A stretch of 64,000 bases of DNA from Bilabrum cf. latius (taxonomy: Eukaryota): assembly GCA_965178125.1 (NCBI GenBank), contig OZ237742.1, positions 310,001 to 374,000 of the forward strand, read 5' to 3'. The notes under the pieces are model-generated. The model did no database searches. It was not told where the DNA came from and was given only the letters and a program-made list of their open reading frames with translations. Positions 12,105-63,685 of this stretch are shown piece after piece; position 1 is the first letter of the stretch, and each line of letters begins with the position of its first letter. The position numbers and the translations under genes are program-made.

Positions 12105-12517
12105 TCGCACTTCAGGTGATAAGCTGGCACTTCGACGCGCTGATACGAGTGCTTCAAAAGGGAAAATATGCTTTCGATCCCAGCTGTTGCCAAGAAGAAA
12201 GAAAAAGCTGCCTCCGACCTGCCCGCAGAGTGCTCCGCCCAGCACTCGCAGCTTGCTTATTAAAGCTACCGCCTCCGGAATTTATGAAGATGAAATATGA
12301 AACTTGAGTGATCGCTTCAGCACAGCACTTGGAGTGTATAATATTTTGTCAAGGCATTATTTGGATAATTGCCTATATATTGTAGTTAGCCCCGGCTCCT
12401 GGCAGAACTGGCAGCATTGGCAGCAGCCAACGTACTTCAAGTTGTCACTCACGTCTGCAACGCATTCAGGACGGTACCTTCTTAGACCGCACGATGCCAA
12501 AACAGGATCAATCAGAT

Positions 12518-14098
12518 ATGGCGCATAGTGGGGCCGAGTCAGTCGAAGTGATCGATCTCGTGAGCGATGACGACGGGGCCTCTGTGAGTGGCGGCCAGAT
12601 GTGTACTTCGGCTAGCCGTGGTTGCTCTGCTGCATCACTTGTGTTACACAGCTGGAAATAGCACATGTGTGCTACACAGCGGAAGAGGAGGGAGCACCCT
12701 CGGCCCGGGGATGTCGCTGGTGGACCCATGGCGATTGTACGAATGGCATCCATCAGCAGATTACCGCAGTAGATGGCCGGGCCCGCAATGCCAGTGGAAG
12801 CAGTTCAACAAGTTGCTGGCATAAGTCCAAGTGAGACTGGCAGTGCCTCGGTGGGCCAAAAGCGCTCACGGACTGAGCAGCCTGAGGCAAGCGGTAACGA
12901 GCAGTCGGTAGATAGGAAGAATGGAAGCGACGCGAAGAGACGGCGGGGGGAAGTAGTTAGATATAATAGTACAAGTAGGTTTGAGTGCGAGGTATGCGGG
13001 AAGGTTCTGACCACTTAGAGCAGCTTGACGCAGCATGTGTTGACTGTGCATCTAGGCGAGCGCAAGCACCAGTGCAGCGTGTGCGGGAAGGCTTTTGGTC
13101 ATGCAGGCAGTCTCAAGAGGCACATATCTGTGGTGCATCTGGGCGAGCGCAAGCACCAGTGCAGCGTGTGCAGGAAGCGCTTCGGGGAGGCAGGCGATCT
13201 CAAGAAGCACATGTCCACCGTGCATTTTGACGAGCGCAAGCACCAGTGCAGCGTGTGCGGGAAGGCTTTTGGTCATGCTGGCAGTCTCAAGAGGCACATG
13301 TCCACCGTGCATCTGGGCGAGCGCAAGCACCAGTGCAGCGTGTGCGGGAAGGCTTTTGGTCGTGCAGGCAATCTCAAGAAGCACATGTCTGCAGTGCATC
13401 TGGGCGAGCGCAAGCACCAGTGCAGCGTGTGCGGGAAGGCATTCGGGGAGGGAGGCAGTCTCAAGACGCACATGTCCACCGTGCATTTTGACGAGCGCAA
13501 GCACCAGTGCAGCGTGTGCGGGAAGGCCTTTGGTCATGCAGGCAGTCTCAAGACGCACATATCTGTGGTGCATCTGGGCGAGCGCAAGCACCAGTGCAGC
13601 GTGTGCGGGAAGGCCTTTGGTCGTGCAGGCAATCTCAAGACGCACATATCTGTGGTGCATTTTGACGAGCGCAAGCACCAGTGCAGCGTGTGCGGGAAGG
13701 CTTTTGGTCATGCAGGCAATCTCAAGAAGCACATGTCTGCAGTGCATCTGGGCGAGCGCAAGCACCAGTGCAGCGTGTGCGGGAAGGCATTCGGGGAGGG
13801 AGGCAGTCTCAAGACGCACATGTCCACCGTGCATTTTGACGAGCGCAAGCACCAGTGCAGCGTGTGCGGGAAGGCTTTTGGTCATGCAGGCAGTCTCAAG
13901 AGGCACATGTCCACCGTGCATCTGGGCGAGCGCAAGCACCAGTGCAGCGTGTGCGGGAAGGCTTTTGGTCATGCAGGCAATCTCAAGAAGCACATGTCTG
14001 CAGTGCATCTGGACGAGCGCAAGCACCAGTGCAGCGTGTGCGGGAAGGCTTTTGGTCATGCAGGCAACCTCAAGAGGCACTTGCAAAGATGCTGTTGA
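12518..14098 (+). CDS. C2H2 zinc-finger array protein (1 divergent finger + 12 near-identical fingers); possible phase-0 intron 12584-12769
   Basis: ATG at 12518; VEVIDLVSDDD is a SIM-like motif. The first finger CEVCGKVLTT[TAG]SSLTQH keeps the canonical C-x2-C-x12-H spacing only if TAG 13016-13018 is an amino acid. It is followed by 12 x HQCSVCGKAFGxAGxLKxH. Ends in TGA. Confidence 0.9.
13049..14080 (+). repeat. 87-nt coding minisatellite (12 units, one 29-aa C2H2 finger each)
   Basis: Units start at 13049, 13136 and so on, each with an invariant gagcgcaagcaccagtgcagcgtgtgc core. Confidence 0.95.
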
Positions 14099-39538: not shown

Positions 39539-42500
39539 TCAACCATTCGTGTTCGGAAGCGGCAAGTCGGCAAACTCGAACTCGGTCTGCTTGTGCGCGT
39601 GCAAGAACCCGCAGTCTCCTAGCCCGCCCTCCCCAAACCTCCCGTCGCTGCTGCCGAACCCCGGCGCACAGACGCATTGCCCCGTCTGAAAGTCGCACGC
39701 ACCTCTTCCGTTGCACTCGAGCATTTCCTTGGTCCCTTTCTGGATCTCTTCGATCCGGATGTCGCCGACCGCCAGGGTCGACCTGGACACCTGCAGCAAA
39801 GGCACGTCGCCATGCTGCGATAGGAACGTCACGTCCGTCTGGAAAGGCTCCCCGTCATCAGTGGCGCCACAGAGGCGGGGAAACGGCCAGCAGATCGCGG
39901 AGTTGAACACGTCCTCCTCGCAGCTAAGAGCAAAGTCCTTTGGCTCCAAGCCCCTGTCCTTGCAGTTTGTCCCAGGGAACGACACCTGGCTGCGAGATGA
40001 CGTAAGCGTGCCGTTCACGAGCTCGAGTGCGTCTTCAAAATCAATCACGTCCTTGTTCGTGAAGTTACGAGTGGCTGGCGCCGGGTGGATGGACACGAGC
40101 CCGATGGCTGGGATGGACTCTTGCAGGTACTCGACAAGGGTGTCGTGCCCACGTCGAGGCGATGCGATCACGCTGGCATCCCACGGGATCCGAATGCTGA
40201 GGTCGCCCCGGAATTCAAGCACCACGCTGCCCCCCGTGGCGTTGCACGTGATACGCTGCCGCTCGAAGACGCCCACCTTGTCTCTAGGGTCGGCACCTGT
40301 GGCACACCTCGCCTGCGAGCAGTCCGGGCCGAAGAAATCGCGGAACGACTCGGAGTACTTGCCCGCGTACCTGCTGCGGTTGCATGCGCACCCCTGCATC
40401 TTGTCCCTGTCCCAGCCGGTGTAGACCAGATCGAGCGAGGCGAAGGACTCCCCGTCCACGGGGCTCCTCGACCTGTTGGCCATGAGGCCGTATACGAGGC
40501 ACTCCCCTCTAGAGTTGCACCCCTCCGGCCTCGTTTCCACGCCCCCCTGGCCCTGCTCGAGAGAGAACCCGTCGCAGCGAGTCCGGTCGCAGCTCGATCC
40601 CTCGAATCCAGCGGCGCATCGGCACAGGCCCGTCGTTGAATCGCACAGCCCGCGACCGCCGCAGTCGACCTGTCTGTGCGCGCCATATTCCGGGGCGGGC
40701 TCCGGGGACCCAAGGGCTTCGTCGTACCAGTTGTTCGCCTCTGGGCAGTCAAGTTTCTCGCACGCAGGCCCCTCGAATGGCGGGTCGCACACGCACACGA
40801 AGGTGCCGGTCTAACAGATTCCGTTTCCCAGGCATCCCAGCGGGCAGTTGGTGACAAACTCGCCACTAGCTGGGATGAATGGCTCGCGCAACACGCCCAC
40901 CATGTTCCCGCAATCCACCCTGTCACCGTGCCCGACGTTCAGGTGAATGCCCGCACCATTGGAGTTCCCAAAACCGTCGTAGCACGAGCACAGCCCGTTC
41001 TCGAGACACGCGCCCCTATCCGAGCACGGCCGGAGGATGCGGCTCCCGTCCCTTGACATGCCCCCGTGCGCGCCGAACTAGTAGTCGCCGTGCAGGATCA
41101 CCATATTGGCGGCACCAGACCCCGCCGTAGATTCCAGGTCGTACGATCCCGGCGCGTTGGACACCTGGATGGGCGGGATGTTCCCAGGGTTGTGCGTGAA
41201 GGTGATCGCGGTGGTCGTGCCCGTCTCTGTGCACAGGTGTCCCAGGGTCGTGTTGTCGCCGTGCTGCCTGACGCTGACGGTATTGATGCTGGTCAGTGCC
41301 TCGAGGGCCTCCTTGAGGTCGTACATGGTCGAGTTGTGGAACACCCTGTCCGCCACCTCGCCGTACACGCTCAGATTGAACCCACCGCTGCACGCGTCGC
41401 TACACTGGCAGTCGATGAGCTGGATCTCGTTGGTCTCGACGTTAAGCGGGTTCGTCTCCGTCTCCGTGACTGGGTTCTCTGCGTTTCCAGTGACTGCTCT
41501 CGCGTTCTCTGCTCCCGTTAAGAACGTGATGTTCTCGTTGGTGTGCAAGTTAGACCACAGGTCGAACTTCATGCCAACGAAGGTCACGGTCCACGTGAAG
41601 GTGCCGGTCCACAGCTCCGGCCTGAGGGGGTCCTCGAAGTACTCGAAGCGGGTGACGTTGACACCGCTGAAGATCGTGTCCATCTCGTCGATCGCCGAGG
41701 CCATCTCCTCGCGGGTGGTGTTCCAGGCCAGCTCGCGGCTCGTCACGTTGGCGTACTTGACGAAGAAGGACCCCTCAAGGAATGCGCCCACAGTCACGGT
41801 GGTCAGGTTGCAGAACGTGGCACCGATCGGGCCGGTGCCCACCACGAGCTCCGTTTCGTTGCAACCCATCTCAGCGACGTCTCCCAGATTGTTCGTGAAA
41901 GTGACGAGCCACCGGAGTCCGGGGCCGCCCGTGTATTCAAAGTCGACGTCCACGCTTGGTACGGTCTCCATCGACTCGATAGCAGCTTTCACCTCGGCCG
42001 GCGTGGCGTCGTACGCGATGCTGACGTTCTGAGGCGGGCCTTCGCCAGGTGGTCTGGACTGCGTATCATCAAACGTGAGGGTGACATTCCCATCCACTTC
42101 ATTTCCGTCCTGAACGGTGCTGATGGCAAGAGAGGGGTTCGTGCCCGCCACGCCGTTCAGCTGCACCGTGAGCTCCTCGAGGTTGCCGCCCACCTCGATC
42201 CCGGAAAAAGTCACGTTGTACAGCACCACGTCATTGAGCCCGTCCACGAACGCGTCTCTCGTGACTGTCACAGAGTCGATGTTGTCGGGCGCGATGTCCT
42301 CCAGGATCTCCTGCACCGACGTGCCCACCACGCCCTGGGCCGGCGCCGTCACCTGGATCAGACTCGTCACACCCGCGGCCCGGACGGCGCACACGCCACA
42401 GCTGGTGGTGTCAAATCCAAGGGAATAGCTGCCGCCCATCGTGCCGATGGCCGCTTCGAGCCTGATCTGCTGCACCTCATTCTGGTCCACATCCCCCTCA

Positions 42501-43195
42501 AGCCCCACTGACTGCACGTCATCCTGGTGATCCGCCAGCGTGCGGATCGACTGGATCTCGCGCTGACCCGTGGTTAGAGGGTCGTCACCCAGCGGACACT
42601 GCATGGTGCTGCACTAAAAATCCGTGAATCCGGGCAGGGGCCTCTGCTCCAGGGACTCGCGACCTGGCCGGAGCCCCGCGTCGCAGATGCAACCCATGTT
42701 CATGTCTCCGTCCCACTGCTCGTACCTGGACTAATGCTTGTATATGCTGTAGTCCTATCGCTCCGATATCTCTCGGATCGACTGACACCGCCCGACATCG
42801 CTGCAATCGCTGTAGCACCGGTTGCGCTGGCACGCGTGACCTTCGTATTGCGATAGGCACTCGCATGTGCCGCTCTCCCCGTCGCAATATCCCCCATTGG
42901 AGCATTCCGCGGGTAAATGACTGTCGCCGTCCGGCTGTGGACCAACGATATCAAACCAAGCCGGATGCGACGGACACTCTCGCCGCGAGCAATCTGGTGC
43001 CGCAGCCCACTGGTCCTAGCACTCGCACTTTGCGCGTGCGCCTCCGGCACAGTTTCCCCGTCCGTTGCAGTTATACTCACATTGTGCCAGTGCTCTCCTC
43101 AAACTTACGATGGCCAAAAATAGGCTAGCTGTCGCTAAGCATCGAGTGCCACGGATGCTTGAGCGACTCCTGCAACGAGCTACCCAACCTGTCAT
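39539..43195 (-). CDS. Secreted EGF-like/Cys-rich protein of the stramenopile mastigoneme/Sig1-like family (~1,218 aa, 6 in-frame TAG)
   Basis: Signal-peptide-like start. Repeated modules CPxxxAWFD...ECSNGGYCDGESGTCEC...YEQWD..GCICD...CSTMQCPLGDDP, and GTKEMLECNGRGACDFQTGQCVC. TAG at 43016, 42755, 42731, 42614, 41078 and 40811 all keep the Cys spacing. Ends in TGA. Confidence 0.85.
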
Positions 43196-43584
43196 ATCAG
43201 ACTTTCGCACGTGATCAAAATCGGTAGCACAATTAAATTGACATCTAGCCAATACTAGAAGTACCTTTCTGGCGTTGTACAATTCGATTGAGTGGGTGGG
43301 CCAACGCTTCGCACAGTCGCACAGTGCAGTGCATATTGGGTCGCAGAGCATTGTTGGCGTGGTCGCAGCCGTGCCTGCCAGAGACTGACCTCAAAATGCA
43401 AACAACACAGACTGGCTTTATTGCGCCTGTTTCGGCAACTCTCTACTCACCAGGTCGAGAAGGTAGCGCAGACTTCCCGAACGGTCGCAAACACCAGAGT
43501 CTGCTTTATTAATTTGTTACGTGTATCTAATCGTGATTCGGAGCTCGAATACGAGATGGTAAGATACTCGCAGTCTGCAGTACC

Positions 43585-44373
43585 ATGGCAGCCCACGGAG
43601 ACAAGAAAGCAACTGACAAATTGAAAAAGAACTTGCAAGACCAGCTGTAGAGGCTTTTCTTGTAGCTGTAGGTGAGTTAAGATAATTCGGGGATTGCACT
43701 GCTCCAGCTGCAACTGCAGACACTGAGCGTTCTGTTTCGATGCTTGAAGTCCAAAATTGAGAGCAGGACTTAGAAGAGCTTCGAGAAGAGTTAGAAGATG
43801 ATGAGTATGACGAAATTCACAAGGACACAACTGAGCAAATGGAAGAGATTGAAACGTAGTTGAACAAGCTCATGGAGGGCAATCTTGGCCTCACAACTGA
43901 GCTTGGAGCCATGAAGATGGCAATTCACGCAGCAATCAAACGTGCATTTAAGACGCCAGCTGTAATTGCTCTGTTTGCCCAAAAGGAACCAAAGGCACTT
44001 CGAGAACGGTTGCGTCAGCTTGGGGAGGACAGAAAGCTCGGCCGCATTGGGGAGGAGGACTACAACCTGCAGTCATTGGAAATCGTGCTTGCCCTTAAGA
44101 AGCTCGGTGAAGAAGTGAGTGCTCTCCTCGCGTGTAGCTCGGCATTGCATGCAATCCAATAGCCCCAATGATACTTAGTGATCACCCCCCCCGGCAGCAC
44201 TGTCTCCGCCCTGCCATCCGCAGTTACTGCCGGAAGAGAAGGCCATTGTAGAAAGGTCATCCGAATCGATGCAGCAATTCCAGGCGGCCAGCGAGGAGCT
44301 CGGGGAGGAGGTGATTGGCATGGCAGGGGAGGGCGTCCGGGCAGCGGCTGCAGGTGGCAGCGACGGGCGATGA
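43585..44373 (+). CDS. LZIC: LZIC (leucine zipper and ICAT domain), 3 exons (43585-43671, 43767-44114, 44224-44373), 4 in-frame TAG
   Basis: The spliced product MAAHGDKKATDKLKKNLQDQL*RLFL*L*DLEELREELEDDEY...AIHAAIKRAFKTPAVIALFAQKEP...EIVLALKKLGEE is colinear with human LZIC as recalled ([23 protein letters not shown]...AIQAAISQAFKTPEVIRLF). Both introns start GTGAGT and end CAG. Ends in TGA. Confidence 0.93.
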
Positions 44374-44481
44374 GATGAGCGGTCGCATGTCCATGTCCTT
44401 TCCTTATAACGTGTGAATGTAGCTTAAATGCAAACCTGCGATTATTTTCCCCGCCGTGCAACGCAGTGCATTGCACTCCAG

Positions 44482-46226
44482 TCATCGGTCCCCATCGCCG
44501 CTAGCCCCCGCCGTGGCCAGCTGCTTGGCTAGCCGCGCAGCCACGGCAGCACCCGCGGACCTGTCTGGCCCCCTGGCCTCGGCGTCCTCCTCGTCTGCCG
44601 GCAGCTCCCTCACCACCATCTTAGCCCCAGTGGCCTGCGCCTCCTCCCTAGCAGCTGCATCGGCGGCATCGCTCTCTACATCGGCTGCCCCGCTGCCACT
44701 GCTGCCCTCTCCCGCCCCCGGTGCACCCCCCGCCCCACCACTTGCCGCCCCCGCGCTGGAAAGCAGCGGCGGCTGCAGCACGGGCGCCACGCTGCCGGTG
44801 GCCATAGCCCTCGCCACCTCTGGATCCCTGTCAGGCTCCCCTCCGCCCACTGCCTTCCCCTCCATCTTCCACCTCCTCAGCTCGGCCGTGCATGCCTCTA
44901 TCCTCTCCCCGTGGATCGCGAAGGTCTGAGAGACCAGCAGGGGCAGGATCAAAGAGGCGTCTGCGTACACCTTGACTGGGCGCGCGTCCAGCCGGATCTT
45001 GCCCCACGAGATGGCTTCATCCGGCCGAGCTCCCGAGTCGCTGCCGTCGAACTCCTGGCCGGTGTTGACGAACACGCTAAAGTCGGCGCCGTTGCGCATG
45101 AGGTTCGCGTTGCAGGTGTGGTGCTTGACCAGGCCGCCGCCCAGGATGATCATGCCGGACTTGCGGGCCGTCATGGCCATGTGGTTCAGCTGGAAGATGT
45201 CCCTGGCGATGTCCAGGTTAAACCCGGGGCGCTTGTACTGGTGGAAGAAGAGCATGTCGCCCACCGAGCCGTCAGTGATGGCTGGGCAGAAGACAGGGAT
45301 GTCGTTCTTGTAGCACCAGTACCACACGCTCTCGGGGTTGTTCATCTCCTTTCCCAGCCTGTGAATCATCTTGGAAGGCGTCCACACGAGCTGCTCCTTG
45401 CTTGGGTCCTTGCGCCAAGCCTCGGTGGATGCGTCCTGCTCGTCGTGCATGGTCTGCAGGATGGGGCTGATCCACTCCTCGAAGTCCGTGTAAGACAGGT
45501 TGGGCACGATGAGGTTGCCGATGCGGTTGAAGCCCTTCCGCCGTAGGCTCTTCCCGGGGAGGGAGAAGGACCCGAGGTAGTGCGGCTTGATGCACTTCAT
45601 GAAATCCTCCTCGATCCCGCCCGCAGTGGTCACCACGCAATCCACCATCCGGTGCTGCACCAGGAAGCGGATCACCTCCCTAGATCCGCAAGAAATCATG
45701 TTGGAAGTGAACGACAGGAAGATGGTGCACTTGGTCTTGGCCCGCTCCTCGTCCGACACGCCCTCGTCGTTCTGGTCGCGCGGCTCGTCGGACAGCCTCC
45801 ACCGAATCATCCTGTTCACCTCCTCTATAGCCTGCCCAAGGTGCGTAGCCTGGAATCCAGTATACTTAAGCGCCTACAAGAGGCGGTCTAGCCTCCCCGG
45901 TCCCGCTTTCGGATCTTCGTCGTCAAAATCAAACCTTCGAGGAACGGGCAAGGGAACGGTGGCATGCAGGCACCACGTCGACGGAAAAGAGGTGATTGCA
46001 CAATTATTGCAAGCATAATATATACAATAAGAAAGTTATTGCAAAGGACCTGATAAATTTGAACTACATTGCCTCCTACTACCGGCGAACAACCTCACCC
46101 TTTCACAGTCAATGAGCCCTCTGGCATTCTTTCGCTCTTAAGCAGCACGGCCTGTTCCGCTAGTGTGGGCTGTGCCCCTTCATCTTTGTTAGAATCTGCA
46201 CCAGCAGCAGGTGAAACTCCCGCCAT
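44482..46226 (-). CDS. DHPS: Deoxyhypusine synthase, 2 exons (46226-46099, 45934-44482), 1 in-frame TAG
   Basis: AVLLKSE..VKG|FDF...RLL[TAG][72 protein letters not shown] (catalytic Lys present). TAG at 45876-45874. Ends in TGA. Confidence 0.96.
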
Positions 46227-46344
46227 GCTCCGCGGTACCAGGAAATAAGTGATATGCGCTCCAAAGAAAAAAACTCCGGATTGTGTGCTGCAATGCAGTA
46301 GATTTGATCTCCTGCTGCAGCATGCATGCTGCATGCAGCACCCA

Positions 46345-49300
46345 TCACCCGAGGCTGATGTCCACGCTGAAGAGCAGCTTGAGCACCACGGTGAGCGCCC
46401 CAATGAGAAGGATGGACACCTCCTTCACGGTCTCCATGGAGATCTCCACGCCCAGCAGCCGCAGCGAGGGCTGGGTCCCATTCAGGTACGCGCCCAGGAG
46501 CGTCTTCTCTCCCGTGGTCGTCTTCCCGAAGGCGGGGCTGCTCACCACGGCCATGGCAGAGTCTCGCTGGAACACGTGGGACCGCTCGGCGATCAGAGCC
46601 ACGCAGTACAGCGGCAGCATCATCCACAGGCACAGCGCCGCAAGCAGCACGAAGTGCGACCCCCAGGCGCCCGTGGCTCCTGTGCCCCCCGGCCCCTTCT
46701 TGGCCTCATCTGTCTGACTCACCGTGTCAATGAGCACGCACAGCAGCAGCACGAAGCTCAGGACCACAGATGTACCGACGCTGCTCCCGTTCGCCTCGCT
46801 CATCCGGTAGATGAAGTGGGCAGCGGACTGGTACGCGGACAGCAGCGCCTCAGCTGCGTCTCCACTAGATAGAAGAGAACTGTGTTGAGTGGCTCGGTGA
46901 GCCGTCGCCAGCATTTCCTGGATCTCAGAGGCCTCAGCCTCGTCGATTTGTTCCCTGAATGAGCCTCCGGAGGAGGCGGTGGCGATCGACAGCCTGTCAT
47001 CACCATCTGCACCGGGACCTTCGCTGCCTGTTGCCGAGCCTGACCCGACACTGCCAGCGACCGGGCGTCCGTCTTGCCCTCCTTCCTCTCTCTCTTCATC
47101 CTCCCGGTGCGCACTGTGCTCACGATTGTGGTGGTGGTGGTGGCGGTGAGCTGCGATCGCCTCTAGCGCGGCTTCGAACGAGTCCTCCCCCCGGACCCTT
47201 GCGAATGCCTCTGCCGCTTCCATTGCCTCATCTTCGGCCGATGCTGCCGTATGCGCGTCTACCATCTCAAAGGTGAGCTGGTCCAGCTGTAGCCTGGCTT
47301 CAGAGCACAGCAGAGCAAACGCATACAGGCCGATGCAGCCGGCGATGGAGACTAGAACCTGGGCCCCAACGAGTGCGATGCCGATGGTCAGGCGTACCCA
47401 TTGTGGCCACGGCAACAAGCCAATCGACCGCACTGGGAGCAGCCCGGCCTCTGCCCCCTTGGCACGCACCATGGGAGGAAGCCCGCCTGGCAGCAACGGG
47501 CCAACGGCAGCCTCCAGCTGAAAGATCGCGCATCCCAGCCACGCGAACACGATGGCCAGCCCAAACGCGCTCGTCACCACCACATGCGCCAGCGCTGCAG
47601 AGAACGACTGTGCCTTGAGCTGGTGAGTGCACGCAGGGCTCAGCACGGCCTCCATCTGCTCCTGCTCCTCGCTGTCCTCCATCGGTGCAGCGAGTCTCTC
47701 GCTGCCGCCCTCCGTGGGTTCTCCCATCTGTGCAGGCTGAGAGCCATCCGCGCGGAGGTCCCCGCTCCCAGAGAAACTAGTGGCACTGGACTCTGCCGTG
47801 GCCCCAGATACGTACCGGTCGATACTTCCGCCAGCTTCCGCGGGGTGTCTCGCCCCTGGGTACTCAATGCTGGAGTGTCTCGATATGGGCCCTGTGGACT
47901 CACTTCCGGCCAGCAGGGGCTGGTTGGGGCCAGAAAGCAGCTCCTACCCTGCGCTGCCGCTGTGAGGCCGCAGTTGTCCAGTAACAGATCGCCCAATCGA
48001 GGCAGCATTCTCGTTCACTGCCCCACCGCTTGTGCGGCGGCCAGCCATCGCTCCGGGGGCAGCAACCTGTTTCTTCTTTCGCCGCCTGCCGTGATGCTTG
48101 TGTGCCTTCTTTCTCGCACCCCACCCCATCTTTTCGGCTTCATGATGCGCATGTGCGTTCTTCTTTGAAACTCCACGCAGAGCTTCTGATTTCCCCAGTG
48201 CCGAAGACTTGTGGTGCTGCGCTGCGCTCAATGGGACGTGCAGGTCACCCGCAGAGGAGGTGGCACCCTCGTGGCCGACGTGCATCTCGTGGCCGTTGTC
48301 GTACTCCCTGCTACCAAGTGGGGAGAAAATTCCATCTCCGCTCCCAGACCGTGGCCTGGCTGACGGAACATGCCGCAGGCCGGAAGCACGAGCTCTGGAC
48401 CCGGCAGCTCCGCTATCATGATGAAGGTCGTGCTTGGACTCCTCCTGGTGAGTCCATGCAGAAGGGGGCTCATATCCATCATTCAGCCCTAATCGGTCTG
48501 CATGCTTCTGCTTGGCGAGAAGTAGGTCCTCAGACAGCAGCGGGGTGCCTGCGTCACCCAGATCTCCAGCCCCTCCGTCACCGTCCTCCCACACCGCAGC
48601 ACCGTCGCCACCTTCACTGCCCTCAGAAAAGCCACCCTGGGCTTCCTCGTCCTCAAACTCATCTTCCAGCTCGACCACTGCCTTGGTCAGCCTCGCTCTA
48701 AACCTCTTTCCCAAAGCGAACTCGGCCCGAGCACCGACCATGCTATGCCAGGGCAGCAGGATGGCGAGCTGCAGCATCACGGATTGCACCGCCGCGAACC
48801 AAGCAGAGTCGGCCGCTTTGCTCGAGCCACCGTCCTCCCCTTCATTCCATTCAAACCCATCCAATGAATCAGGGTCGTGACTATCGCTATACTCGCTGTA
48901 GCCAAACCTGATCTGGTCCCAGTCGGTGACATCGCCTCTGTCCGATGCCCTGTGGGTCGCCACCGTGGCAAAGTATCGAGCCAGCGGCGGAAGTGCCATC
49001 CACACGACGATGAGCACAATGGCTAGCAGGTAAATCACAAACGCCACTCTGGGCATCCCGGATGCCCGCTCCCCCCACCAGGGCAGGATGCCGACGAGAC
49101 GCATCAGTGTCTCGCTCCACACCAGAGTAGTCCCACTGGTGCAGCATGCACCCTGTGGCTCCGCCGCGCCTCCTGCTTCCGATGAGCCCTCTTGTCCCAA
49201 GACACCCTGATCGTGCTGCGTCTCGTTGCCGCGCAGACCCTTAAGCAGAGCTTCGTGCTCTTCCCACCCCGGTGCTTGCGGACCAGTCTTGTGCAAAGGA

Positions 49301-50391
49301 TCAGCGGTACCAGGCAATCCTCCTGCCTCCATGCTCATCTGGGCGGCTCCCGCTCGGCTGGGTGCACGGTGCAGCGCCTTGCTGCCGGTGTAGCCATCCC
49401 TGGGCAACGTACTGTCGCGGGCGGTTCCTCTTGTGCGGCGCCATGACGCGTGTCGGCTGAGTGTGCGGCGCCCGTCTGCATTGTGACCCGGGTCATTCAG
49501 GCTGAGGAGACCACCGTCACCGAACATGGCGCCCCCGGTGCTGGTGGAGGAGAAGAGCGCGGCACCGCCGAGCTGAGCCTTGATTGTGTTCCCTAGATTG
49601 CGACGGGTCCGGGCCGGTGACTAGGAGCCACGCTGTAGTTGTGGACGACTCGGAGGTCTCCCTAGGCCAGCGCCGCTGCGTCTGCTGCTGCTGTCGGCGG
49701 TAGCTTGAGGTCGATCCGACCTGATCGGGCTGTGCGCCCCGAGGTGCTCTTCACTGCCACCACTGGCACCACTGTGATCAGCAGCCTGAGCAGCAACAGG
49801 TGTCTGCGACGCTGCGCTACTGGAGCCATCGGCATGGCTGACACCGGTCTAAACTCTCGTGCTTTGGTGGCTACCCAGACTCGCAGACGCGGGGCCAATC
49901 GCGTCAGAGGTACCATCGTCCTCTGAGCCCTCGCGTGAATCCTCCGAGATGACTGGGATGGACGGAGCGCCGGCGTGTCTCCTCCTCGCTCGGTTAGCAA
50001 CGAGGATGCGGTGGGCGCTTCGGCGATGCCTTGGGATGCCTCCGTGGGGCGTTTGCTACGTATTTATCTGGCTGAATGGCTTCTTGCTTTCCGCAGGCGC
50101 GCTCAATTGCCGTTGATGGCCGCTTCGTCGTGCTTCACCAACACCACCCACATCCATGCCAATCGGTACAGCCACCCCTGCGCCAGCACCTGCGCCCCTC
50201 TATTGCTTCCGTCGAGCATCAATTTCTTCGAGAACTCCTTGGGCGTACGCCTTCGGAGCGGCTCCTCCGGATGGCTTTCGAGCGTGTCGGACATTCGACC
50301 TCGTGGGCGGAAGCAGGCCGTAAAGTACGCTTCGGCGAGAGAAAGGCATGTCGTCCTCGTTGTCAGTCTCATGCACTTCGTCATCGTGCAT
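46345..50391 (-). CDS. Multi-pass membrane protein (~1,348 aa), candidate gustatory-receptor-like / DUF3537-like 7TM ion channel
   Basis: ORFs 50200-50448, 47944-49527 and 46345-47727 share one frame, joined through TAG only. About 7 hydrophobic segments separated by long low-complexity loops. LMRLVGILPW precedes TM1; C-terminus is GAYLNGTQPSLRLLGVEISMETVKEVSILLIGALTVVLKLL. Ends in TGA. Confidence 0.65.
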
Positions 50392-50670
50392 GGTACCGCG
50401 AGACTTGCGGCTGTAGAATTTTGGTTGGTGTCGAAGCACATCCCGCACTTGCTGCGGTCGCAGTGTTCTTGACTATAATCCTTTCGTTCGTCTCCTATCT
50501 GACAGCCTTGAGTTCTACAGCTAGAACTGGAATGCTAGTCCCCTGTCACCACGCCGGGTTGCCATGACTAGGCCAAAATAGAGTACTTCTGAACCTGCAA
50601 CACCTCGAGCCTCTGATGAGATTCGGATCTGTAATTCTTCTCACATTTCAGCTCACTCGAATCGGTTCGC

Positions 50671-53085
50671 ATGAACCTACTGCTACCAATGCATATTGTA
50701 TTGAGTGCTTTATTTGTGGTAGCGGGTTCAGCGCTGGCAGCAGCCGAGTACTCGGCCCCTGCGATCCCGCTAGCTGCAAGATCCCCTTTCTTCCAAGTGT
50801 GGACGTTTGGGCGCAAAACCCCTTCTGAAATCCAAAAGCATTGGTCATTCAATCCCGGAAATGGCTTTTTGGCCCGAACAGTTGCAATGGCCAGGGTGGG
50901 CGAACAGACCTTCAATTTAATTGCAGATCCAGTGGGAGGTTTGGAGGATGCGCAGCAGTCGGGTGTGGTTGTTGGCGCGACACGAACGGAACTGAAGTAC
51001 GCCCTTGGATCTACAGGCATTCAGATCGTGGCTACATTCACCTCGCCACTTATTCCTGACGACATGTAGGCCTTCGCAGATCCAGTCGTGTACGTCAATT
51101 TCTAGGCCACCAGCAACGGCCACGAGCCGTACACAGTTGATGTGCTGTTTGGCGTCACGGGAGAACTTCTTGTGTCTTAGCCCTCGCCAGAGTCCGGGGT
51201 ATCTCCCGGGCCTCACGCGTCCGGTGCGGAGAGTTCATGGTGCAACGACACGGACTGGGACGTCAGCTTCATGGAGTCTAAGGTGCCCTCAGCAGCCTGG
51301 ACCTCTCTGTCTACTACTAGCAGTAAGTCGGGGACCTCTGCGGCACAAATCAATGGATCAGCAACTCTGAGGGCCGCTCGCATAGGCAAGGCCCGGCAGC
51401 AGCCCCTCTGCAATTACGGAGACATGTACAAGGGCAACTGGGGCTGGCAGTACCTGGTGCCCGTCCCAAGGAGCCTGGGAGGCGGCACCGACGACGTGAC
51501 CATATGCACCGGGTGCGGGCTCAGGACAGCGGCGCGTGCCTTCGCGGCCACTGGAAACGCCGGCAACTCCGTGGACGCGGAGAACCCCAGGCCCTTCAAC
51601 GAAGGCCTGGACCGGGAGCCCGCCGTGATGCTGTCTGCCAGGCTAGGCATGGTGGCGCCCGGAGCTCCCCCGTCGACGTTCGCTCTAGCCTGGGCTGTGG
51701 ACGAGCTCGAGAGCATCCGCTTCTTCAATCGGACCCTGGTTCCGCTGTGGCGCCGCGCAATGCCCCCGAAGGACTACTACTCCGTGCCGCAACAGATGCT
51801 TGCACGCGCGGCATCTCGATTCCAGGAGCTGGACGAGCTGACCAAGAGCTGGGATGCAGCCGTATTGGCCAATGCCACGGCGGTCGGGGGTCCCAGTCTC
51901 GGGTTCATGGCATCCATGGCGTACCGACAGGCACTGGGAGCAGGCGCGATCACTTGGGAGCAGTCGACCAGCACGCTGCGAGCGTTCGTGAAGGAGCAGT
52001 CCACCAACGGTGACCTCTCCACCCAGGACATCATCTGGCCGCAGATGCCTATTTTACTGCTGTACGCCCCGTGGTTGCTCCTGCTGGAAGAGGTCGGACA
52101 CCTGGAGCTTGCAGACAACAGGACCAACGTGCAATACCCACTCGAGTGGACGCCCCATCAGTTAGGCAGATGGCCGATCGCGCAGCAGCAGGAGCAGGAG
52201 TACATGCCGGTCGAGACCACGGCCGACTTCATCTTCTCGATGGTAGAGGCAGAGCGCCGATCTCCGGGGCTCATTACCGAGTACCTCACGTAGCACAAGT
52301 ACTGGGATGCGATCGGGCGGTTCGCCAACTTCTTGGCTGCGTCCCTCCCCGACCCGCCCGTTCAGAAGTACACGAACGATTTCAGGGGGAACTAGGCGGG
52401 GTGGACCAACCTCGCCGTGAAAGGGACCATTGGACTGTCTGCATATGCCTGGCTAATCCGCCGGGCTCCTGCCGCGGCCCGCGCCTCTTTGCCTGACCCA
52501 GACAAGCTGGCCGCTGCAGCAAAGGCATCCAGCGAATTCTTCAACGACAAGGCGTGGGTTGGCCCGGACCACTTCCGCACATGCTACGACTGCGAACAGT
52601 ACAATGGCAGCGACACGTTTGACTACAAGTACAACCTCATGGGGCGCGTGCTCCTCGACGGGGAGCCGACGGAGGGCCTCGCCTTCGACACCGCGAAGCT
52701 TGATGCCGACCTCAAGTTCTACCAGGGCAAGATGCAGCGCTTTGGCGTGCCGTTTGCGAGTAACGATAACGTGACGGGTGTGCCAACGTGGCAGATGATG
52801 TTTGGGGTGTCCACAATGAACGCGACGACTGGTGAGGTTGGCCCCTTCTTTCAGGCTCTCCTCAAAGCTGGCGCCAGGGCATATTCGAACGACTCGGTGT
52901 CACCGGTTCCCATGAGCGACATGTTCGACTGTGTAACGCTGGCAAATAAGGGCCACAACGGGTATGGGATGAGGGCACGGCCCACGGTGGGCACTGTGTT
53001 CCTACCGATCTACGTGAGCATGCGTGCCAAGGAGCAACTCTGGCCAGTGCCCTAGCCTGAACTTCCCACCCCGGATACCTATTGA
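50671..53085 (+). CDS. Secreted glutaminase GtaA-like protein (DUF5127/DUF4965/DUF1793-type), ~804 aa, 6 in-frame TAG
   Basis: Signal peptide; PAIPLAARSPF, TFTSPLIPDDM, FVKEQSTNGDLSTQDIIWP, YMPVE, NDFRGN*AGWTNLAVKG, ARPTVG. TAG at 51067, 51103, 51178, 52291, 52393 and 53053; TGA at 53083-53085. Confidence 0.82.
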
Positions 53086-53379
53086 GCAGTCAGACACACA
53101 TCTGGCGGGCTGCTTGCTACATGTCATTTTTGCTACAGGCAACAAGTGGGGCGGAGCTGTCGAATTGGAACGGGCGACAGCTGCATCGTGCACGCTGCTC
53201 AGGTAAACCTACGCCTATCCTAGGATCAATGTGTTGAGAAATTCGTTCGGATTGATCGTGCTGTGTACTTCCAAGATAGTGACAGGTTGATTTGTAAGAT
53301 TCTATATCGATAAGACACATAATAAACAAGCAGCTATGCTAGACTAGTAAGTCACTCCTCCTGGCAACTCAGCAGTGAG

Positions 53380-56300
53380 TCAGCACTGCTGCGCCCCCTT
53401 CGAGTCCGGTGGCAGGATTGCTGGCATAGTATCTCGCGTTGCAGCAGGACGCTCAGTGCTCGTTACAGAGCGAGACGACTAATCCACGTGCGTGTTGTTG
53501 TTCTGCAGCAACCCGCCTCTCGACTTGTTTGCAGCAAGCGACCTACTAGACCCAGGCCTGAGCCGTCCTGGACTCGCCCTCTGCCTGCCCCACATGCATT
53601 CGCAACAGGAATCCATGCAAACATCGCAGCTACCCCGCTGGCTATTGCCTATTAAATGTCTCCTTGAGGCAGCACTAGCAAGGTGTAGCCGTCTACGGCC
53701 CAGGTGCAGCTCGTAGCAGCACACCGACTCGCACTCTAGTGCGCAACCCGCTCGTCCAATCTTGATGCACTTGCAGCAGAACGCGTCCGACAACCAGCGA
53801 AGCGTCCACCCGAGGCAGCACGACCAGCCGCACGAGAACTTTTCCTTCTACTGCTCGATCCATCCATCGCTACGTGCATCAGATGAGCTATTCTATGTGC
53901 CGTCTTCAGACGAATCTGCATCGCTGCTTTCTACCTCACCGAGGACGTGCGCGAGCTGGCCCTGATACTCTTTCGGCAAAGCAGCGTATGATCCAACGGC
54001 AAGACAAATGATAAAGAAGAATACATTGAGTCCAAGGACGACGTCTCCGATGACGCGACGAACTCTTTGCCCCCCCCCGTGCTCGCTGAGTGCCGCCTGC
54101 TGGCCCTCCGAGAAGGACTCCTGGAAGTCGCTGGGAACAGCGATGATCGGCAGCAGGGTCAGCATCAGGGCTACAGCGGACAGCTGCTCCAGCCTGTTGG
54201 CCAGGAGGGACCGCAGGGGCTGAAACACAGCCACAGAGTTTAGATGGACCACCACGAGGACGAGAGCCACGGCCACCTGCGCCGAGACGCCGACTTGCTG
54301 CAGAGAGGCCATAGACACCGCCAGAAAACCGCGTCGGAGCATATTTATAGATTCCCAATAAGGTGCACCTTGTCGATAGCTGGACAGCAGGTAGCTCAAC
54401 CGGTAGTTCTCTGTCCGGGACCGCTTGTCCTGGGAGCACGTGTAGTACATGGCGAGCATGGGGCCTCCGAGCGAGAGGAAGACGAGGATAGGGACGACGA
54501 TGCCGAACCTTGAAGCGGAGGTCGTCTCGCAGTTCACGTCGAGGTCCGCGCTGAGCCTGGACTAGAATGCAGAATCGTACCATCCCGCACCGGCATCGGC
54601 TGCGCTGTCCGCTTGAGCCGTCTCGTGGCCGGGGGGAAATCTGATGGCCAGACTAGCACCGGTTGCGTTGCTCGCCAGGGATGCCCAGTACAGTGGGGGA
54701 GCCTCGTCAAGAGGAACAGCCGCACTGCTTTCAAAGTCAGGCCCTACCATGGTGCAAGTTAGTAAAGCCACCGCTCTCGACGTGATAAATGCGTGGAGGG
54801 TCACCCCGACCACGGAGATCGCAAGGAGCACACGGTCTGCGTAAGACGGCTCAAACGCGGTTGGCGTGATGATTCGCCTGCGCTAACCTCTGCTTTTGTT
54901 TTTTCGCATGCGCACTACAGCCCGCAGCACAGTAACAGAGCCGCCTACGTGCGAAGATGAACGAGAGCTCTCCACCTGGGGAGCCCTAGCTTGCGGTCGA
55001 GGCGGCCGCGTCGGCTAGCTACGTGCTAGCGAAGGCAAGCTGGAATTCGATGCCCCCCACAAAGGGTTATTTGTCGAGTTCCCAATGCCATTCATGCCAG
55101 CCCCTATCGCCCTCATGCGCCGCAGATCGGAGGTCTGCACACGAAGAGGACCTGGTGTGAACCCAACGCTTCGTTGGGACCCAGCAGCAGACATAGAGCT
55201 GGGCATCTGTACGGTTCCCAGGGACGTCAGGCTCCTTCCACTAGTCATCATAGAGGGCGTGTGCGATGATTCTTGGCTCACGGTGTCGTGCATGCCGGCG
55301 TCCTCCTCGTGCTCAACGATCAGCGATCGGCCGCTCTCGAGCTGTGCTGACATCGTCCTTATAGCTGCATGTACGTCTACCCTCGGACGGTTGATCCGGC
55401 TACTCCGGCTGCCTCGGCTTGAGGTACGAGATGCTCGAGAGCCTACAGACATATTGCTGCCTTGTATGTGGCTACTGCTGCTGCTTCCAGCTTTGCTGTG
55501 GGCAGAAGACTGCTCGTTGGGGGGCGGTGCGGGGCTCTCCAGAGTTCCGGAGAATGGGAACCGAGCAGGGTTCTCCTCGTTTGTGCCCCCTTCATCAGTC
55601 AGATCAATGGATCTGTTCGATGCTCCAATCTGCAGATCCCGTCCTCGAACAGTCCAGCGACTCTGCTGCCCTGCCGACGGAATCGGGCTCGCACTGCCCG
55701 TGCTACGGTAAGTGCTTGAGTTGAGCACGTTGCTGGGTGCACCAAATTGATTCTGATCCCCATCGCTTGAATTACAGTCTTCATCGGTTTCAAGAATTGG
55801 TACGGCTGAACCGCTCAGTTTAGTGTCGGAGATCTCGAGAGGCTTCGCGATCCTCGGTGACGTGGTTAACATCTCCAGAGCTCCGGATTCTTGTCTTGAG
55901 TGCGTGTGGCGAGCCACGGCTAGTGACCGCTGCCTATGGACAGGCCTACGAGGAGCCTCCGTTTTCGTAGATCTCGCTGTCAGAGATCGTACAGAGTGCT
56001 CGGAAGGCACGTCGTCTCTCGCGACGGCAGCATCACTGCGAACCATCGACAGCACCCAGATGGGAATCGTTGCGCAAACGCCGAAGCCAAACAGCACCAG
56101 TACAACAGGCAGAGTAAGAGACATCATGACACGCAGAAACGCGGGTGACGACTGAAGAGGGATGCCGTCTACACCATACTCGAGAGAATCGCGATCGATT
56201 TCAGGTAGTACGGAACAGTCAGGTGACAGCACATCGATTCCGCCGGTCGTGCCTGCATCTGACACCGCAAAGAGTCGTAAAAAACCCTCAGACCACTAGG

Positions 56301-59300
56301 CATCAATGGCGCTTGCAATTGAGAGAACTTGCACGTGGCCTAAAATGACTCGCAGCACCGCGACCACGCCTGTCTTGTGCGATTTCTTGTCGATGTCCTC
56401 ATTGGCGTACTTGGCACCTGACCTGTGCGCCAGTAGCATCAGCCCACCGCAAGCTAGCATCGCGACTACGCACAGCCCAGCAAGCTAGAGACCAGCCTGT
56501 GTTGACTTGCACTCCAGGCAATCGCCAAAGGCAGAACGATGTCGACCAATCATGCACCGCTCGCAGCCCACACCAGCTCTTCCGTCTGCACACCCTTCGT
56601 GCGTGCTAGGCAGCAGGTCGGCATCGTCTCCAATTGCAGGAGATATCGCCACAGCCGACTCGAACTGCGTCTGGAGAGCGGTGAATGTCTCCTACTCAGT
56701 CGCGCCTGGTGGCACGAGAGAAGCCGCACTTGCCGGCACGATCGCTCTCCGTTGCTGGGGGTACTGCAAAGACGAGGCCCCCACGCACCAAGATGGCCGC
56801 CGGCAGCGCATAAATGGCAAATACTGCGACATGGCCCAAGGTACCCGCCATGAACCGTCGGCAGCAGTGCAATTGCCTTGGGACAGACCTCCGCACACGG
56901 CCATGGTCGCATCGACCGCTCGACAGGTCTTGCTGTCGGCATCCACCTCAGCGCCTGCCAAGTGCTAGTCGGCTCGACAAGACTCCAGCACTTCGGTCGG
57001 GGCCCATGTCCCAGCCGGTGCGGGGTTGTTGTTAGACATCGCACGGACTCGTACAATGAACGGGGCAGCATCGCTAGCAGACGCTATTGCCCTAAATACC
57101 TGGATGCCAGCGGCTGTAGGCGAAGCACTGCGAATTCTCGCGGCAACGTCAGGCGGGAGACCGGGGCTGAGGGGCAGCTATCGAGAATCCGGCAGCATAC
57201 TGGAAACGCTTGAGCCATCGTTTGATCCGGGGCGCGATGGGCTGCCCGGCACTGCGGGAATCGACGATTCACCCCATAGCACAGAGTCGCGCTCCAGCAC
57301 CGTGCGTCGAGCATCTACGAAAGCTGTGCTAGGATCTAGAACCGATTGCTGGATGCTGCTCAGGCGGATCACTTCCACCAAAAAGCCTGTTGCTTCTGTG
57401 AGCGTGTCTAGCGCGGCAGAAGAAGCCGAGCCTGCAGCGGTTAGTGCGTTGGACTCATCCGCCGGGGACGGGTACGTCCACATGACCTCGATCTGAGTGG
57501 GGTCTCCGATCGGTCGCCTGGCGTACACCGTCCAAGGTATCAAAGCTGGCACTCTTGCTCTGCTGGCCTGCTCCGTCTGCACCCTGATCCCTGTCGAGCA
57601 CACACGTGATCGCAGGCAGACGCGGACCACGGCGAACGGGCTGGGCACCGTGATCTGCGAGCCATTCAAACGTTCGATGAACTCGAGATGCAGCCGTTCG
57701 GCCTCAAATATAGGCAAGGAGCCTTCAAATGCAACTGATGGATTCCCCCCATCCCACGAACGAATGGGCACGAGTGAGAAAGTCGTGGACGCACCGGCCT
57801 GGGTTCGCCGCCGGCCGTGCACTTCGTCGTCGTACCACAGAAGCTCTGAGTCGTCCAGAGACGGAGACTGGCCCAGTCGAGGTACGACCGTCTCGACTAG
57901 CACACCCGTCACGTCATCTGGAGCATACCCCAGCGATGAACCGAACAGCTGCACCGGGACGGACTCGCGAATCAAGCGATCCGAGATGGCAGAGATCGTA
58001 GGCACGTCCTGCGTCTCTAGCAGCCCAGCCACGGCGGAGGACTCTCGGCCGCCGATCGAAACCTAGATGGAGTTCATTTGGGGCCACTGTTGAGCGACTG
58101 GTTCTACTCGATTGCATCGAACACAACTCGAGTTGTGCACCTCCATATCCTGGCACCGCCGGCCTGCGACAAGCATGCCGAGCAATATATCCCCACGAGA
58201 CGCAACAGCATCCATGTCAAGGAGTCCAGGAAAAAAATCAGTCCCGCAAACAAGAAGCCCACTTTCGGCAGTACCTCCAGCCCCGCTCCCGCTCAGGTCA
58301 TCCGCGAAGAGAATCCTGGAAGGATACACGGCAGTAGGCACCGGTGGGTCGTAGCTGAAGGACCCCTCTGCATGCAGACCGCCTCGCGTGTACACGCGCA
58401 CGAGGGCCTCGGCCACGAAGCCAGGAGTTGCGGTGAATACGAGCTCCAGAGGGTTCACCCACTACCACTCTGCCGACAACCAGCTCAACGATGAGTTAAC
58501 CACAACCCGCTCGATGTCGCTTGCAGCGGACCCGAGTCCACTCCCGACAACTCGAAGCAATGCGCCCCCTTCTGCTGGAACGCTTCCATGCACCACAGTC
58601 TGGACAAAAGGGGGCGGAACTGGCCTGATAAGATCCGGAAACTGGAATGTGTTTGTCACGTTACCCTCCACCATCGAGACGCGCACATCGGCGCTTGTCC
58701 ATTCAGCTGGATGCACCACGCCGGTGCATCGAAGCGTCGTATGCGAGAGAACGTCAATATCAGCGCAAGATTCGTTGCCGATCGAAACAGAAGCCAGTAA
58801 ATCTCCAGAAAATCCGACGCCGCGAAGGGTAAAGTCCGTCGATATCGATCCGTTTGAGGGCAGCACGCTTGCTGGGGAGACGGACTGGACCACGGGGTCT
58901 GCCGTGGAATACGATATGGCACCAGAGCTGGACTGGCCGTCGACCACAACGGTGACTGTCAGGTCCAATCCCGACACAGCAGGTGCCCTGCAATTAATCT
59001 ACGAATCAGACAAGTGCACCGGGCTGTCGCACGGTACGCCATTGATCAACACCGACGGGGTTGCGGTCGGAACGCGGCTAGCATTCGCTGCATCCACAGG
59101 TCTGCCAAAGCCGGTCCCTAGGATCTGCAACAAGCTGCCAGTTCCTGGAGAGCTCGCACGCGGGAGCACTCCCTGGGACGGTTGCACATCAACGACTTCT
59201 GGAGCAGCATACGCAACGGTGCCGGCAAGCATCTAGTCCGGCAGCACACCAGGAATGCTTGCTTCGAACGCAAGCAGCACCTGGCTCTGCACGCCAGTGC

Positions 59301-62300: not shown

Positions 62301-63213
62301 GCGGCACGGATTCTACCACTGTCCAATTCTGCTTCGGATCGGATGGCTAGAAATTCCTAAGAGTCGCAACTCTTACATGAAAGTGAAGCAAGGGTGGAAT
62401 CTACCCATTATCAGCAACAATGTCATTACTACCCACGACCGGGTTGGCACTAGCCGCAGCATGCAGCAGGCTTGACGGAATTGCCACTTCCTGCGCCTGG
62501 TTTGGCTGCGATTCGACGAGCATGGCCCTGCCGCATTCTGGGGCTGCATTCCAGCCAAAGTGCACCGATCTAGCAATCGACGAGCTATTTGTAGTACGGG
62601 TTGAGTTGGACTACTGTTCACCCGGCGAATTCGAAACCAGAGCCCAGCTTCGCACTGTCGGGCGTGACAGAAAGTTGGCTGAGCTGCACTATGAGAAACA
62701 TGATTGCGTACCTGTTTGCACCTAAACGAGAAGCACAGCCCCCCACAACTACTGCAGGAGATTCCTATGACAATCGACCGCCGAGCAGCGACCGCTCGCA
62801 TCGTGGAGTTCGCCACCAGCCGTTTGGGTGGCATTGAGCTGCAGAGCCCCGCTTCGGCCAGGACCGCCAACTGATACGCCAATCCATATTTCACTGCATT
62901 GATGCGGCAACTTTGCCGCTCTGCTGTGTGATTCGTTGGCAGCATATACATGGGGCACACGGTGGTTCTCGTTTTGATCGAATCGCTGCTACGAATTGCT
63001 CTGCCAACGGACCCGAATCTCGTCGAACCAAGGGATGGCCGAGGCATTGAGTTGACTGAAATCTTTGCATTCAGATATTGTTCCCGGCTCCGCCCGTGAA
63101 CACCACGGCAAGTCCCCGAGAGGCCCAGTAGCGCACTACGCGTAGTTTGCCAATACACCTAGAGCAACCACTACGAGGGCTATGTTTGGGCGCCTCGGTG
63201 TGATCAAACTCAT
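53380..63213 (-). CDS. Giant (~3,280 aa) cell-surface protein: signal peptide, RCC1 repeats, IPT/TIG domains, Cys-rich segment and TRP/GPCR-like multi-TM C-terminus
   Basis: Single frame from ATG 63213 (MSLITPRRPNIALVVVALGVLANYA*C) to TGA 53382-53380, interrupted only by TAG. RCC1 repeats (SAGxxHTC...CWG.NxxGQLG) at ~59850-62230. IPT-like units at ~58050-59500. CADGRAGVGCERC..CLEC, then LRVILGHVQVL...*WSEG...DC and YLLSSYRQGAPYWESINMLRR. Confidence 0.82.
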
Positions 63214-63685
63214 TGCCACCAAAACGTTCGGGACTCAGCTTCGAACAATGGGAGCATCTATCCAGCACTACCGCAGGGTGGCGTAGAAAGATGTAGATAC
63301 GCCGTGGCACCATGCGTGTGCGCGGCTGCCGGAACATGGTCGAACATGGTCGCAAGCAAGGGCTGACACAGACCAGCATTCAACAAGCACGGCAGCGGAT
63401 TTCGCCTCTTCAAACTGTCAAACGCACAGCTGCACTTTACAAACCAAATCGGCGAGCCACGGGAGATTCTTCATCCGCCGGCCGGTGGCAAGAGCCGGTT
63501 GGCACGTCCATGATCCGCTCTCAACCAATACCTCCTGCAACCCTCCGATGGTCTTAGCATAGAATTTTGTATATACTACACCAAGTCAGCCATATTCCGA
63601 GGCATGAGAGGCAAGAAAATCCACAAATCATCACACTACCGGCACCTAGCTTCGACTCACATCCATTCCGTGGCACAGCCTTAAG

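Follow-up and report, generated by a model that had tools for sequence, protein, structure and literature searches.

The stretch of DNA analysed here, 64 kb long with a GC content of about 60% and referred to as the window throughout, carries on its forward strand a three-exon LZIC gene (43585-44376) with four TAG codons in frame (43648-50, 43663-65, 43669-71 and 43857-59). A deoxyhypusine synthase (DHS) gene with a TAG of its own is convergent with it, and a frame encoding a cysteine-rich EGF protein and a giant RCC1-repeat frame lie on the same strand as DHS (Table 1). The question addressed is what UAG means in these genes.

Table 1. Features of the window, in order of position.
Feature	Coordinates	Strand	Remarks
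Tandem C2H2 zinc fingers	12308..14098	+	about 12 near-identical fingers
Cys-rich EGF protein, 1283 residues, mastigoneme homologue	39539..43390	-	Pfam EGF families; 6 in-frame TAGs, including that of FXCS at 42614-16
LZIC exon 1, 29 codons	43585..43671	+	ATG 43585; TAGs 43648-50, 43663-65, 43669-71 (the last being the final exon 1 codon)
LZIC intron 1, 95 nt	43672..43766	+	GT..AG; joint 43669>43765 ('cut +2') in X5, X7
LZIC exon 2, 116 codons	43767..44114	+	TAG 43857-59; ICAT domain begins here
LZIC intron 2, 109 nt	44115..44223	+	GT..AG; joint 44114>44224 in X5, X7
LZIC exon 3	44224..44376	+	terminal stop TGA 44374-76
Deoxyhypusine synthase (DHS)	44482..46226	-	exon 1 46226-46097, intron 46096-45933, exon 2 45932-44482; stop TGA; TAG 45874-76
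GtaA-family gene	50635..53085	+	TAG 53053-53055
Giant RCC1-repeat / IPT-TIG / membrane protein ORF, 3284 codons	53380..63234	-	27 in-frame TAGs; Pfam
RCC1-protein TAGs matched by Q in the ~8%-diverged relative	60364-66, 59557-59, 56296-98, 55015-17	-	blastp of P0008-P0012

Genes of the window and their stop codons

LZIC is an ordinary spliced conserved gene. The features of the family are present, namely a C-terminal ICAT domain and an N-terminal leucine-zipper coiled coil within about 190 residues, and the protein is collinear over its full length with bat, dog and sheep LZIC at 47-50% identity; exon 2 with its flank matches the Pfam ICAT family (PF06384) with 31.2 bits, the cut-off being 25. 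Exon 1 translates as MAAHGDKKATDKLKKNLQDQLXRLFLXLX, X standing for TAG, and both the start codon at 43585 and the TAG positions are where an earlier annotation made from the letters alone (the sequence-only reading) had located them.

Contigs from four public runs (X5, X7, X8 and X10; four studies) were compared with window positions 43400-63399. Both LZIC introns are removed precisely at their GT..AG borders in one contig each of X5 and X7, that is, in two of the four runs and in two studies, and over the pieces listed, which comprise LZIC exons 2 and 3, these spliced contigs agree with the window letter for letter. TAG 43857 in exon 2 thus keeps its T in the intron-less contigs, the library type of which is RNA by guess, no kind being recorded for X5 and X7. 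Of exon 1 these contigs contain only the flank of the joint (90 and 83 letters), with no difference listed. The X8 and X10 contigs are genomic and retain the LZIC introns, that of X8 having 0 other letters against the window and that of X10 spanning TAG 43857 with no change listed there; the DNA-level comparison of TAGs in X10 covers the stretch up to 44175.

Some further observations were made on these contigs. The DHS intron (45933-46096) is skipped in those of X5 and X7, with the joint 45932>46097, and the same two runs have in common a joint 44739/54088 that skips 9348 bases between AC and CT, with 22 letters on the short side, which probably reflects chimeric assembly or a short shared repeat. 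Contigs with 0 other letters against 43400-63399 come from runs under four coded organism labels (A to D) in four studies, and the identity of contigs under four labels may mean that the cultures were mixed or that runs were labelled by the partner organism.

The DHS assignment is supported by Pfam PF01916 (E 1e-118) and by DHS entries in the PDB (E 1e-137). The giant frame joins many RCC1 repeats and IPT/TIG domains to a C-terminal multi-pass membrane region, and the nearest homologues of its RCC1 part outside the clade are only 25-30% identical. In the GtaA-family gene the TAG sits 10 codons before the terminal TGA, the protein ending in WPVPXPELPTPDTY. The near-identical zinc fingers (HLGERKHQCSVCGKAFG...) contain a single in-finger TAG, located in the first, diverged finger.

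Codon use was counted over 13 ORFs of the 64-kb window, 17,768 codons in all. There are 112 TAG codons in the coding frame, with no depletion relative to the 136 and 141 of the two off frames; TAA occurs 0 times in frame against 51 and 57 times off frame, and TGA 0 times against 275 and 366, a disparity between TAG and the other two that greatly exceeds chance. The ORFs end on TGA in 11 of 13 cases and on TAA in the other two, one of these TAA codons being followed by a tandem TGA, and no gene needs TAG as its stop. Every long gene in the window has an in-frame TAG, and the long frames are open only with TAG read through, the ORFs of 3284, 3137, 2687, 1569, 1431 and 1283 codons holding 27, 25, 14, 5, 8 and 6 TAGs, respectively. 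Pfam domains extend across TAGs in the kinase, RCC1, TIG and GtaA families, and complete domains occur in TAG-bearing frames for protein kinases, RCC1 repeats, IPT/TIG, EGF, GtaA, an ammonium transporter and deoxyhypusine synthase. Counted with the Gln codons, TAG makes up 112 of 802 (CAA 190, CAG 500), and about 40 in-frame TAA codons would be expected if TAA related to TAG as CAA does to CAG (190:500), against 0 seen. Since TAA and TGA are absent in frame and are used as stops, a reading as Gln applies to UAG only. The window was found to contain 0 tRNA genes and 0 Rfam matches, and eRF1 is not among its genes.

The residue at TAG columns in distant homologues and close relatives

An LZIC profile built from two full-length relatives (P0005 and P0006; the initial word-index search had yielded five relatives) retrieved 1259 homologues at E<=0.001 from 1.84 billion representative proteins, and the best 150 of these 1259, together with P0005 and P0006, were aligned with the spliced window protein (152 homologues). 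Column 27 (TAG 43663) is Q in 120 of 134 sequences and column 29 (TAG 43669) has Q as its plurality (Q37 E26 S24 A16, n=133), whereas column 22 (TAG 43648; D34 N33 E17 S11 Q7, n=128) and column 60 (TAG 43857; S84 T20 Q15 F11, n=151) are mostly not Gln. Summed across the four columns, BLOSUM62 scores place Q (6.6) above E (4.2) and S (3.7). Against the mammalian proteins X22 lies opposite D, and X27 and X29 lie opposite Q, without gaps. The LZIC-type fragment of Cafeteria roenbergensis, 54% identical to the window protein, has Q at three of the four TAG columns; the window gene differs from its mammalian and Cafeteria counterparts in writing four Gln codons as TAG and in having two short introns.

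Much of what the sequence-only reading had said of LZIC is borne out by this alignment. The gap-free match to mammalian LZIC is real, and the human string that it had given is identical to dog, bat and sheep LZIC; TAG 43663 and TAG 43669 do fall on Gln positions, and TAG 43648 on a polar one. The tabulation of LZIC orthologues that it had proposed as a check came out strongly for Gln at column 27 and by plurality at column 29, but not at columns 22 and 60. As there is one strongly conserved Gln column, the distant LZIC columns taken alone are only suggestive of Gln for TAG.

Outside LZIC the same reading had claimed that other sites agree with Gln. Their coordinates are right (SDSXINC at 58999-59001, SIXVSIGG at 58063-65, RLLXAL of DHS at 45874-76 and FXCS at 42614-16), but the DHS, EGF and IPT columns do not point to Gln. 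That of DHS is variable, with A32 N19 K14 E13 D10 S10 Q9 among 118 homologues and A20 D9 G8 Q6 K6 E6 among 66 metagenome DHS genes, although human DHS does have Glu there, as had been stated. The FXCS codon (X259 of the mastigoneme-type protein) stands opposite the D of a [GA]PDCS motif in the aligned PDB chains, and so the expected Asp is found as well, and the IPT codon is opposite T in human MET, a weak match. For the EGF column X125 of the mastigoneme-type protein, three of four PDB alignments give Y, Y and F, and homologues at the kinase-loop column have E, K and H. A search of the PDB for relatives of the GtaA-family protein found none. Gln is found at 13 of the 224 positions next to TAG codons (5.8%) against a baseline of 3.9%, a weak excess.

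It is the codon-level comparison with two close relatives that settles the question of the residue. The more distant of the two is represented by L003, a 1865-nt metagenome contig with a convergent DHS-LZIC pair syntenic with window positions 43585-46226 at about 78% nucleotide identity. Its LZIC is without intron 2, has a diverged intron 1 and stops on TGA. Among 192 aligned LZIC codons, 73 are the same codon, 176 give the same residue and 10 are other residue changes. As for the pairs that contain TAG, all six set it against CAA or CAG, and TAG-TAG pairs number 0: window TAGs 43648, 43663, 43669 and 43857 are CAG, CAA, CAG and CAA in L003, and L003 in turn carries TAG at the window's CAG 43639-41 and CAA 43979-81. 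Non-TAG codons keep their residue in 94.6% of cases, with synonymous sites nearly saturated, and any reading of TAG other than Gln would therefore call for six independent replacements to or from Gln within this small gene. TAG writes 4 of the 13 Gln codons of the window LZIC.

The second relative is about 8% away in nucleotide sequence (run X10), and the collections have its proteins broken into ORF fragments at the TAGs of that relative; its Q residues come from these predicted proteins and not from its DNA. Its giant RCC1 protein is found as five fragments (P0008-P0012) that are 88-97% identical to that of the window, with 103 differences over 1381 aligned residues, and that cover four window TAGs, at residues 957, 1226, 2313 and 2740, with Q at all four. 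Four of the five fragments end directly before a window TAG and the fifth before a window Gln codon. Its DHS (P0035, 99% identical) starts M-Q-A-L-K-Y over L-X-A-L-K-Y of the window, again with Q at the TAG column. Over the two relatives together, each of the nine window TAG columns with another codon or residue in a relative has Gln there (Glu 0), and in the reverse direction all three TAG or ORF-end positions of the relatives that are non-TAG in the window are CAA or CAG in the window. The use of TAG in this way is common to at least three related lineages, that of the window, the ~8%-diverged relative and the ~22%-diverged relative. In public protein collections the genes of such relatives are fragmented by standard-code gene callers, as was seen for every relative's protein.

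UAG as a sense codon and the alternatives

Taken together, these data make it almost certain that UAG is a standard sense codon for Gln beside CAA and CAG, with UAA and UGA still terminating, which is the code of NCBI table 15. The sequence-only reading had arrived at Gln as well, and is now supported mainly by evidence from close relatives that it did not have (9/9 columns and 3/3 reverse cases); its main alternative, Glu, occurs at 0 of these nine columns.

That TAG should stand for Glu, or for some other polar residue (Asp, Ser or Lys, for instance), is highly improbable. What can be said for it comes from distant alignments, in which E stands opposite the TAG in human DHS, LZIC homologues have E in 17 of 128 sequences at column 22 and in 26 of 133 at column 29, the FXCS column has D and the kinase-loop column E or K; the columns so invoked are variable ones, however, and E, D, S and K are found at 0 of the nine close-relative columns, all of which are Q, while the LZIC comparison with L003 would need the six independent exchanges to or from Gln. 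Tyr, the residue for which Mesodinium uses UAR, lies a single step away from TAG through TAC and TAT and is met, with F, at the X125 column in three of four PDB alignments. Yet Y occurs at 0 of the nine close-relative columns, TAY<>TAG pairs number 0 among the 192 LZIC codons, and Q occupies the highly conserved LZIC column 27, so that we attach a negligible probability to this reading.

A second group of explanations would leave the genetic code itself untouched. TAG could remain a stop that is read through: organisms with the standard code are known to read through UAG by means of near-cognate tRNA-Gln (PMC13192750), and the GtaA-family gene has a TAG 10 codons ahead of its TGA. This we consider very unlikely: single ORFs hold up to 27 TAGs, the 112 TAGs in 13 ORFs are not depleted relative to the off frames, all 13 ORFs end on TGA or TAA, and DHS and LZIC terminate at the same place in the relatives. 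The number of TAGs per gene makes full-length products impossible by leaky readthrough. Alternatively, the TAGs might not be translated as such, being changed to CAG by U-to-C RNA editing or resulting from assembly errors or pseudogenes. Nothing positive speaks for this beyond TAG and CAG being one transition apart, and its probability is minimal. The same TAGs occur in contigs from independent runs of four studies (X5, X7 and X8 with 0 other letters, X10 keeping 43857), the relatives have TAGs of their own at other Gln sites, and the genes are conserved and otherwise intact. Editing is, moreover, unlikely because the intron-less contigs retain T at the exon 2 TAG, an argument that holds only if these contigs are RNA-derived.

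As to how UAG came to be read as Gln, analogy with other reassigned lineages suggests that UAG would be decoded by a tRNA-Gln of its own, with the anticodon CUA and descended from tRNA-Gln(CUG), and that eRF1 would be blind to UAG. The TAG codons themselves would have arisen by CAG>TAG transitions following reassignment.

Lineage and relation to known codes

The host lineage is probably a stramenopile, judging by its protein sequences. The cysteine-rich EGF protein upstream of LZIC finds its only strong matches in the whole PDB in all six chains of 9ufe, named tubular mastigoneme protein or OCM3/5/6, at E 6e-25 to 3e-16, the sole further match being a weak, flagellin-related one (E 8e-5). The product is probably a flagellar-hair (mastigoneme) protein and a marker of stramenopile affinity, tubular mastigonemes being a hallmark of stramenopiles. 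The closest named homologues of both DHS (68%) and LZIC (54%) are from Cafeteria roenbergensis. Fungal and aphelid DHS proteins are only 5-6 points below that of Cafeteria, and the position of the window in a DHS tree (FastTree, with plant rows P0041 and P0052 left out) has a support of 0.1, and for these reasons we place the lineage among the stramenopiles as probable and no more firmly than that. The metagenome that yielded L003 also contains a contig (L001, 1-10559) with a GC content of 70-76% and a DHS 69% identical to that of the window. TAG is absent from the two longest ORFs of L001 (981 and 1238 codons), by which it probably has the standard code; we regard it as probably Cafeteria-like and outside the TAG clade.

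Reassignment of UAG alone to Gln (the table 15 type) is described in PMC11687900 and PMC5304391 for the fornicate Iotanema spirale, the ciliate Protocruzia tuzeti and the phyllopharyngeans Hartmannula sinica and Trochilia petrani. Like these cases, the window has UAG frequently at Gln positions and UAA still as a stop; unlike them, it belongs probably to a stramenopile and consists of GC-rich (60%), intron-poor, multi-gene chromosomal DNA, and its main stop is TGA (11 of 13 genes), whereas UAA predominates in these ciliates. Both UAR codons are read as Gln (the table 6 type) in Amoeboaphelidium protococcarum, ulvophyte green algae, Hexamita, oxymonads and many ciliates, according to PMC11687900, PMC6299283 and PMC5304391, and what these lineages share with the window is a stop codon captured by Gln, presumably via a mutated tRNA-Gln. 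Table 6 was also considered for the window itself and was rejected, since the count of TAA was 0 in the coding frame, with 51 and 57 in the off frames, and two genes use it as their stop. Amoeboaphelidium, the known opisthokont case, differs further, its genomes having about 40% GC (PMC10608142, Table 1), against 60% here, and TAA being reportedly read as well as TAG (PMC6299283); it is thereby excluded as the source of the window. In further lineages UAA has stayed a stop while UAG has gone to a residue other than Gln, namely to Leu in some ciliates and the rhizarian exLh, to Ser in Scotinosphaera and to Glu in an oligohymenophorean ciliate (PMC11687900). Compared with these, the meanings of UAG and UAA are likewise uncoupled in the window, and the residue here is Gln (9/9 close-relative columns).

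The kind of code is thus already known, and it is the lineage that appears to be new for UAG-only reassignment to Gln. A search of open-access full texts and bioRxiv brought up no stramenopile for which nuclear UAG reassignment has been reported. We tentatively put forward, with slightly less than even confidence, that this is the first nuclear stop-codon reassignment in stramenopiles: an independent origin of UAG-only reading as Gln in a GC-rich, intron-poor heterokont clade of at least three lineages up to about 22% apart in nucleotides, in which UGA is the main stop and UAA still serves as one. Systems in which UAG and UAA differ in meaning are few, and each independent origin tests the models of stop capture, here those that invoke mutation of the tRNA-Gln anticodon, a change in eRF1 specificity and the infrequent use of a stop codon when a genome is GC-rich. 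Graded relatives within a culturable, GC-rich clade of stramenopiles, among which TAG, CAG and CAA exchange with one another, would make it possible to follow through time how a new sense codon spreads.
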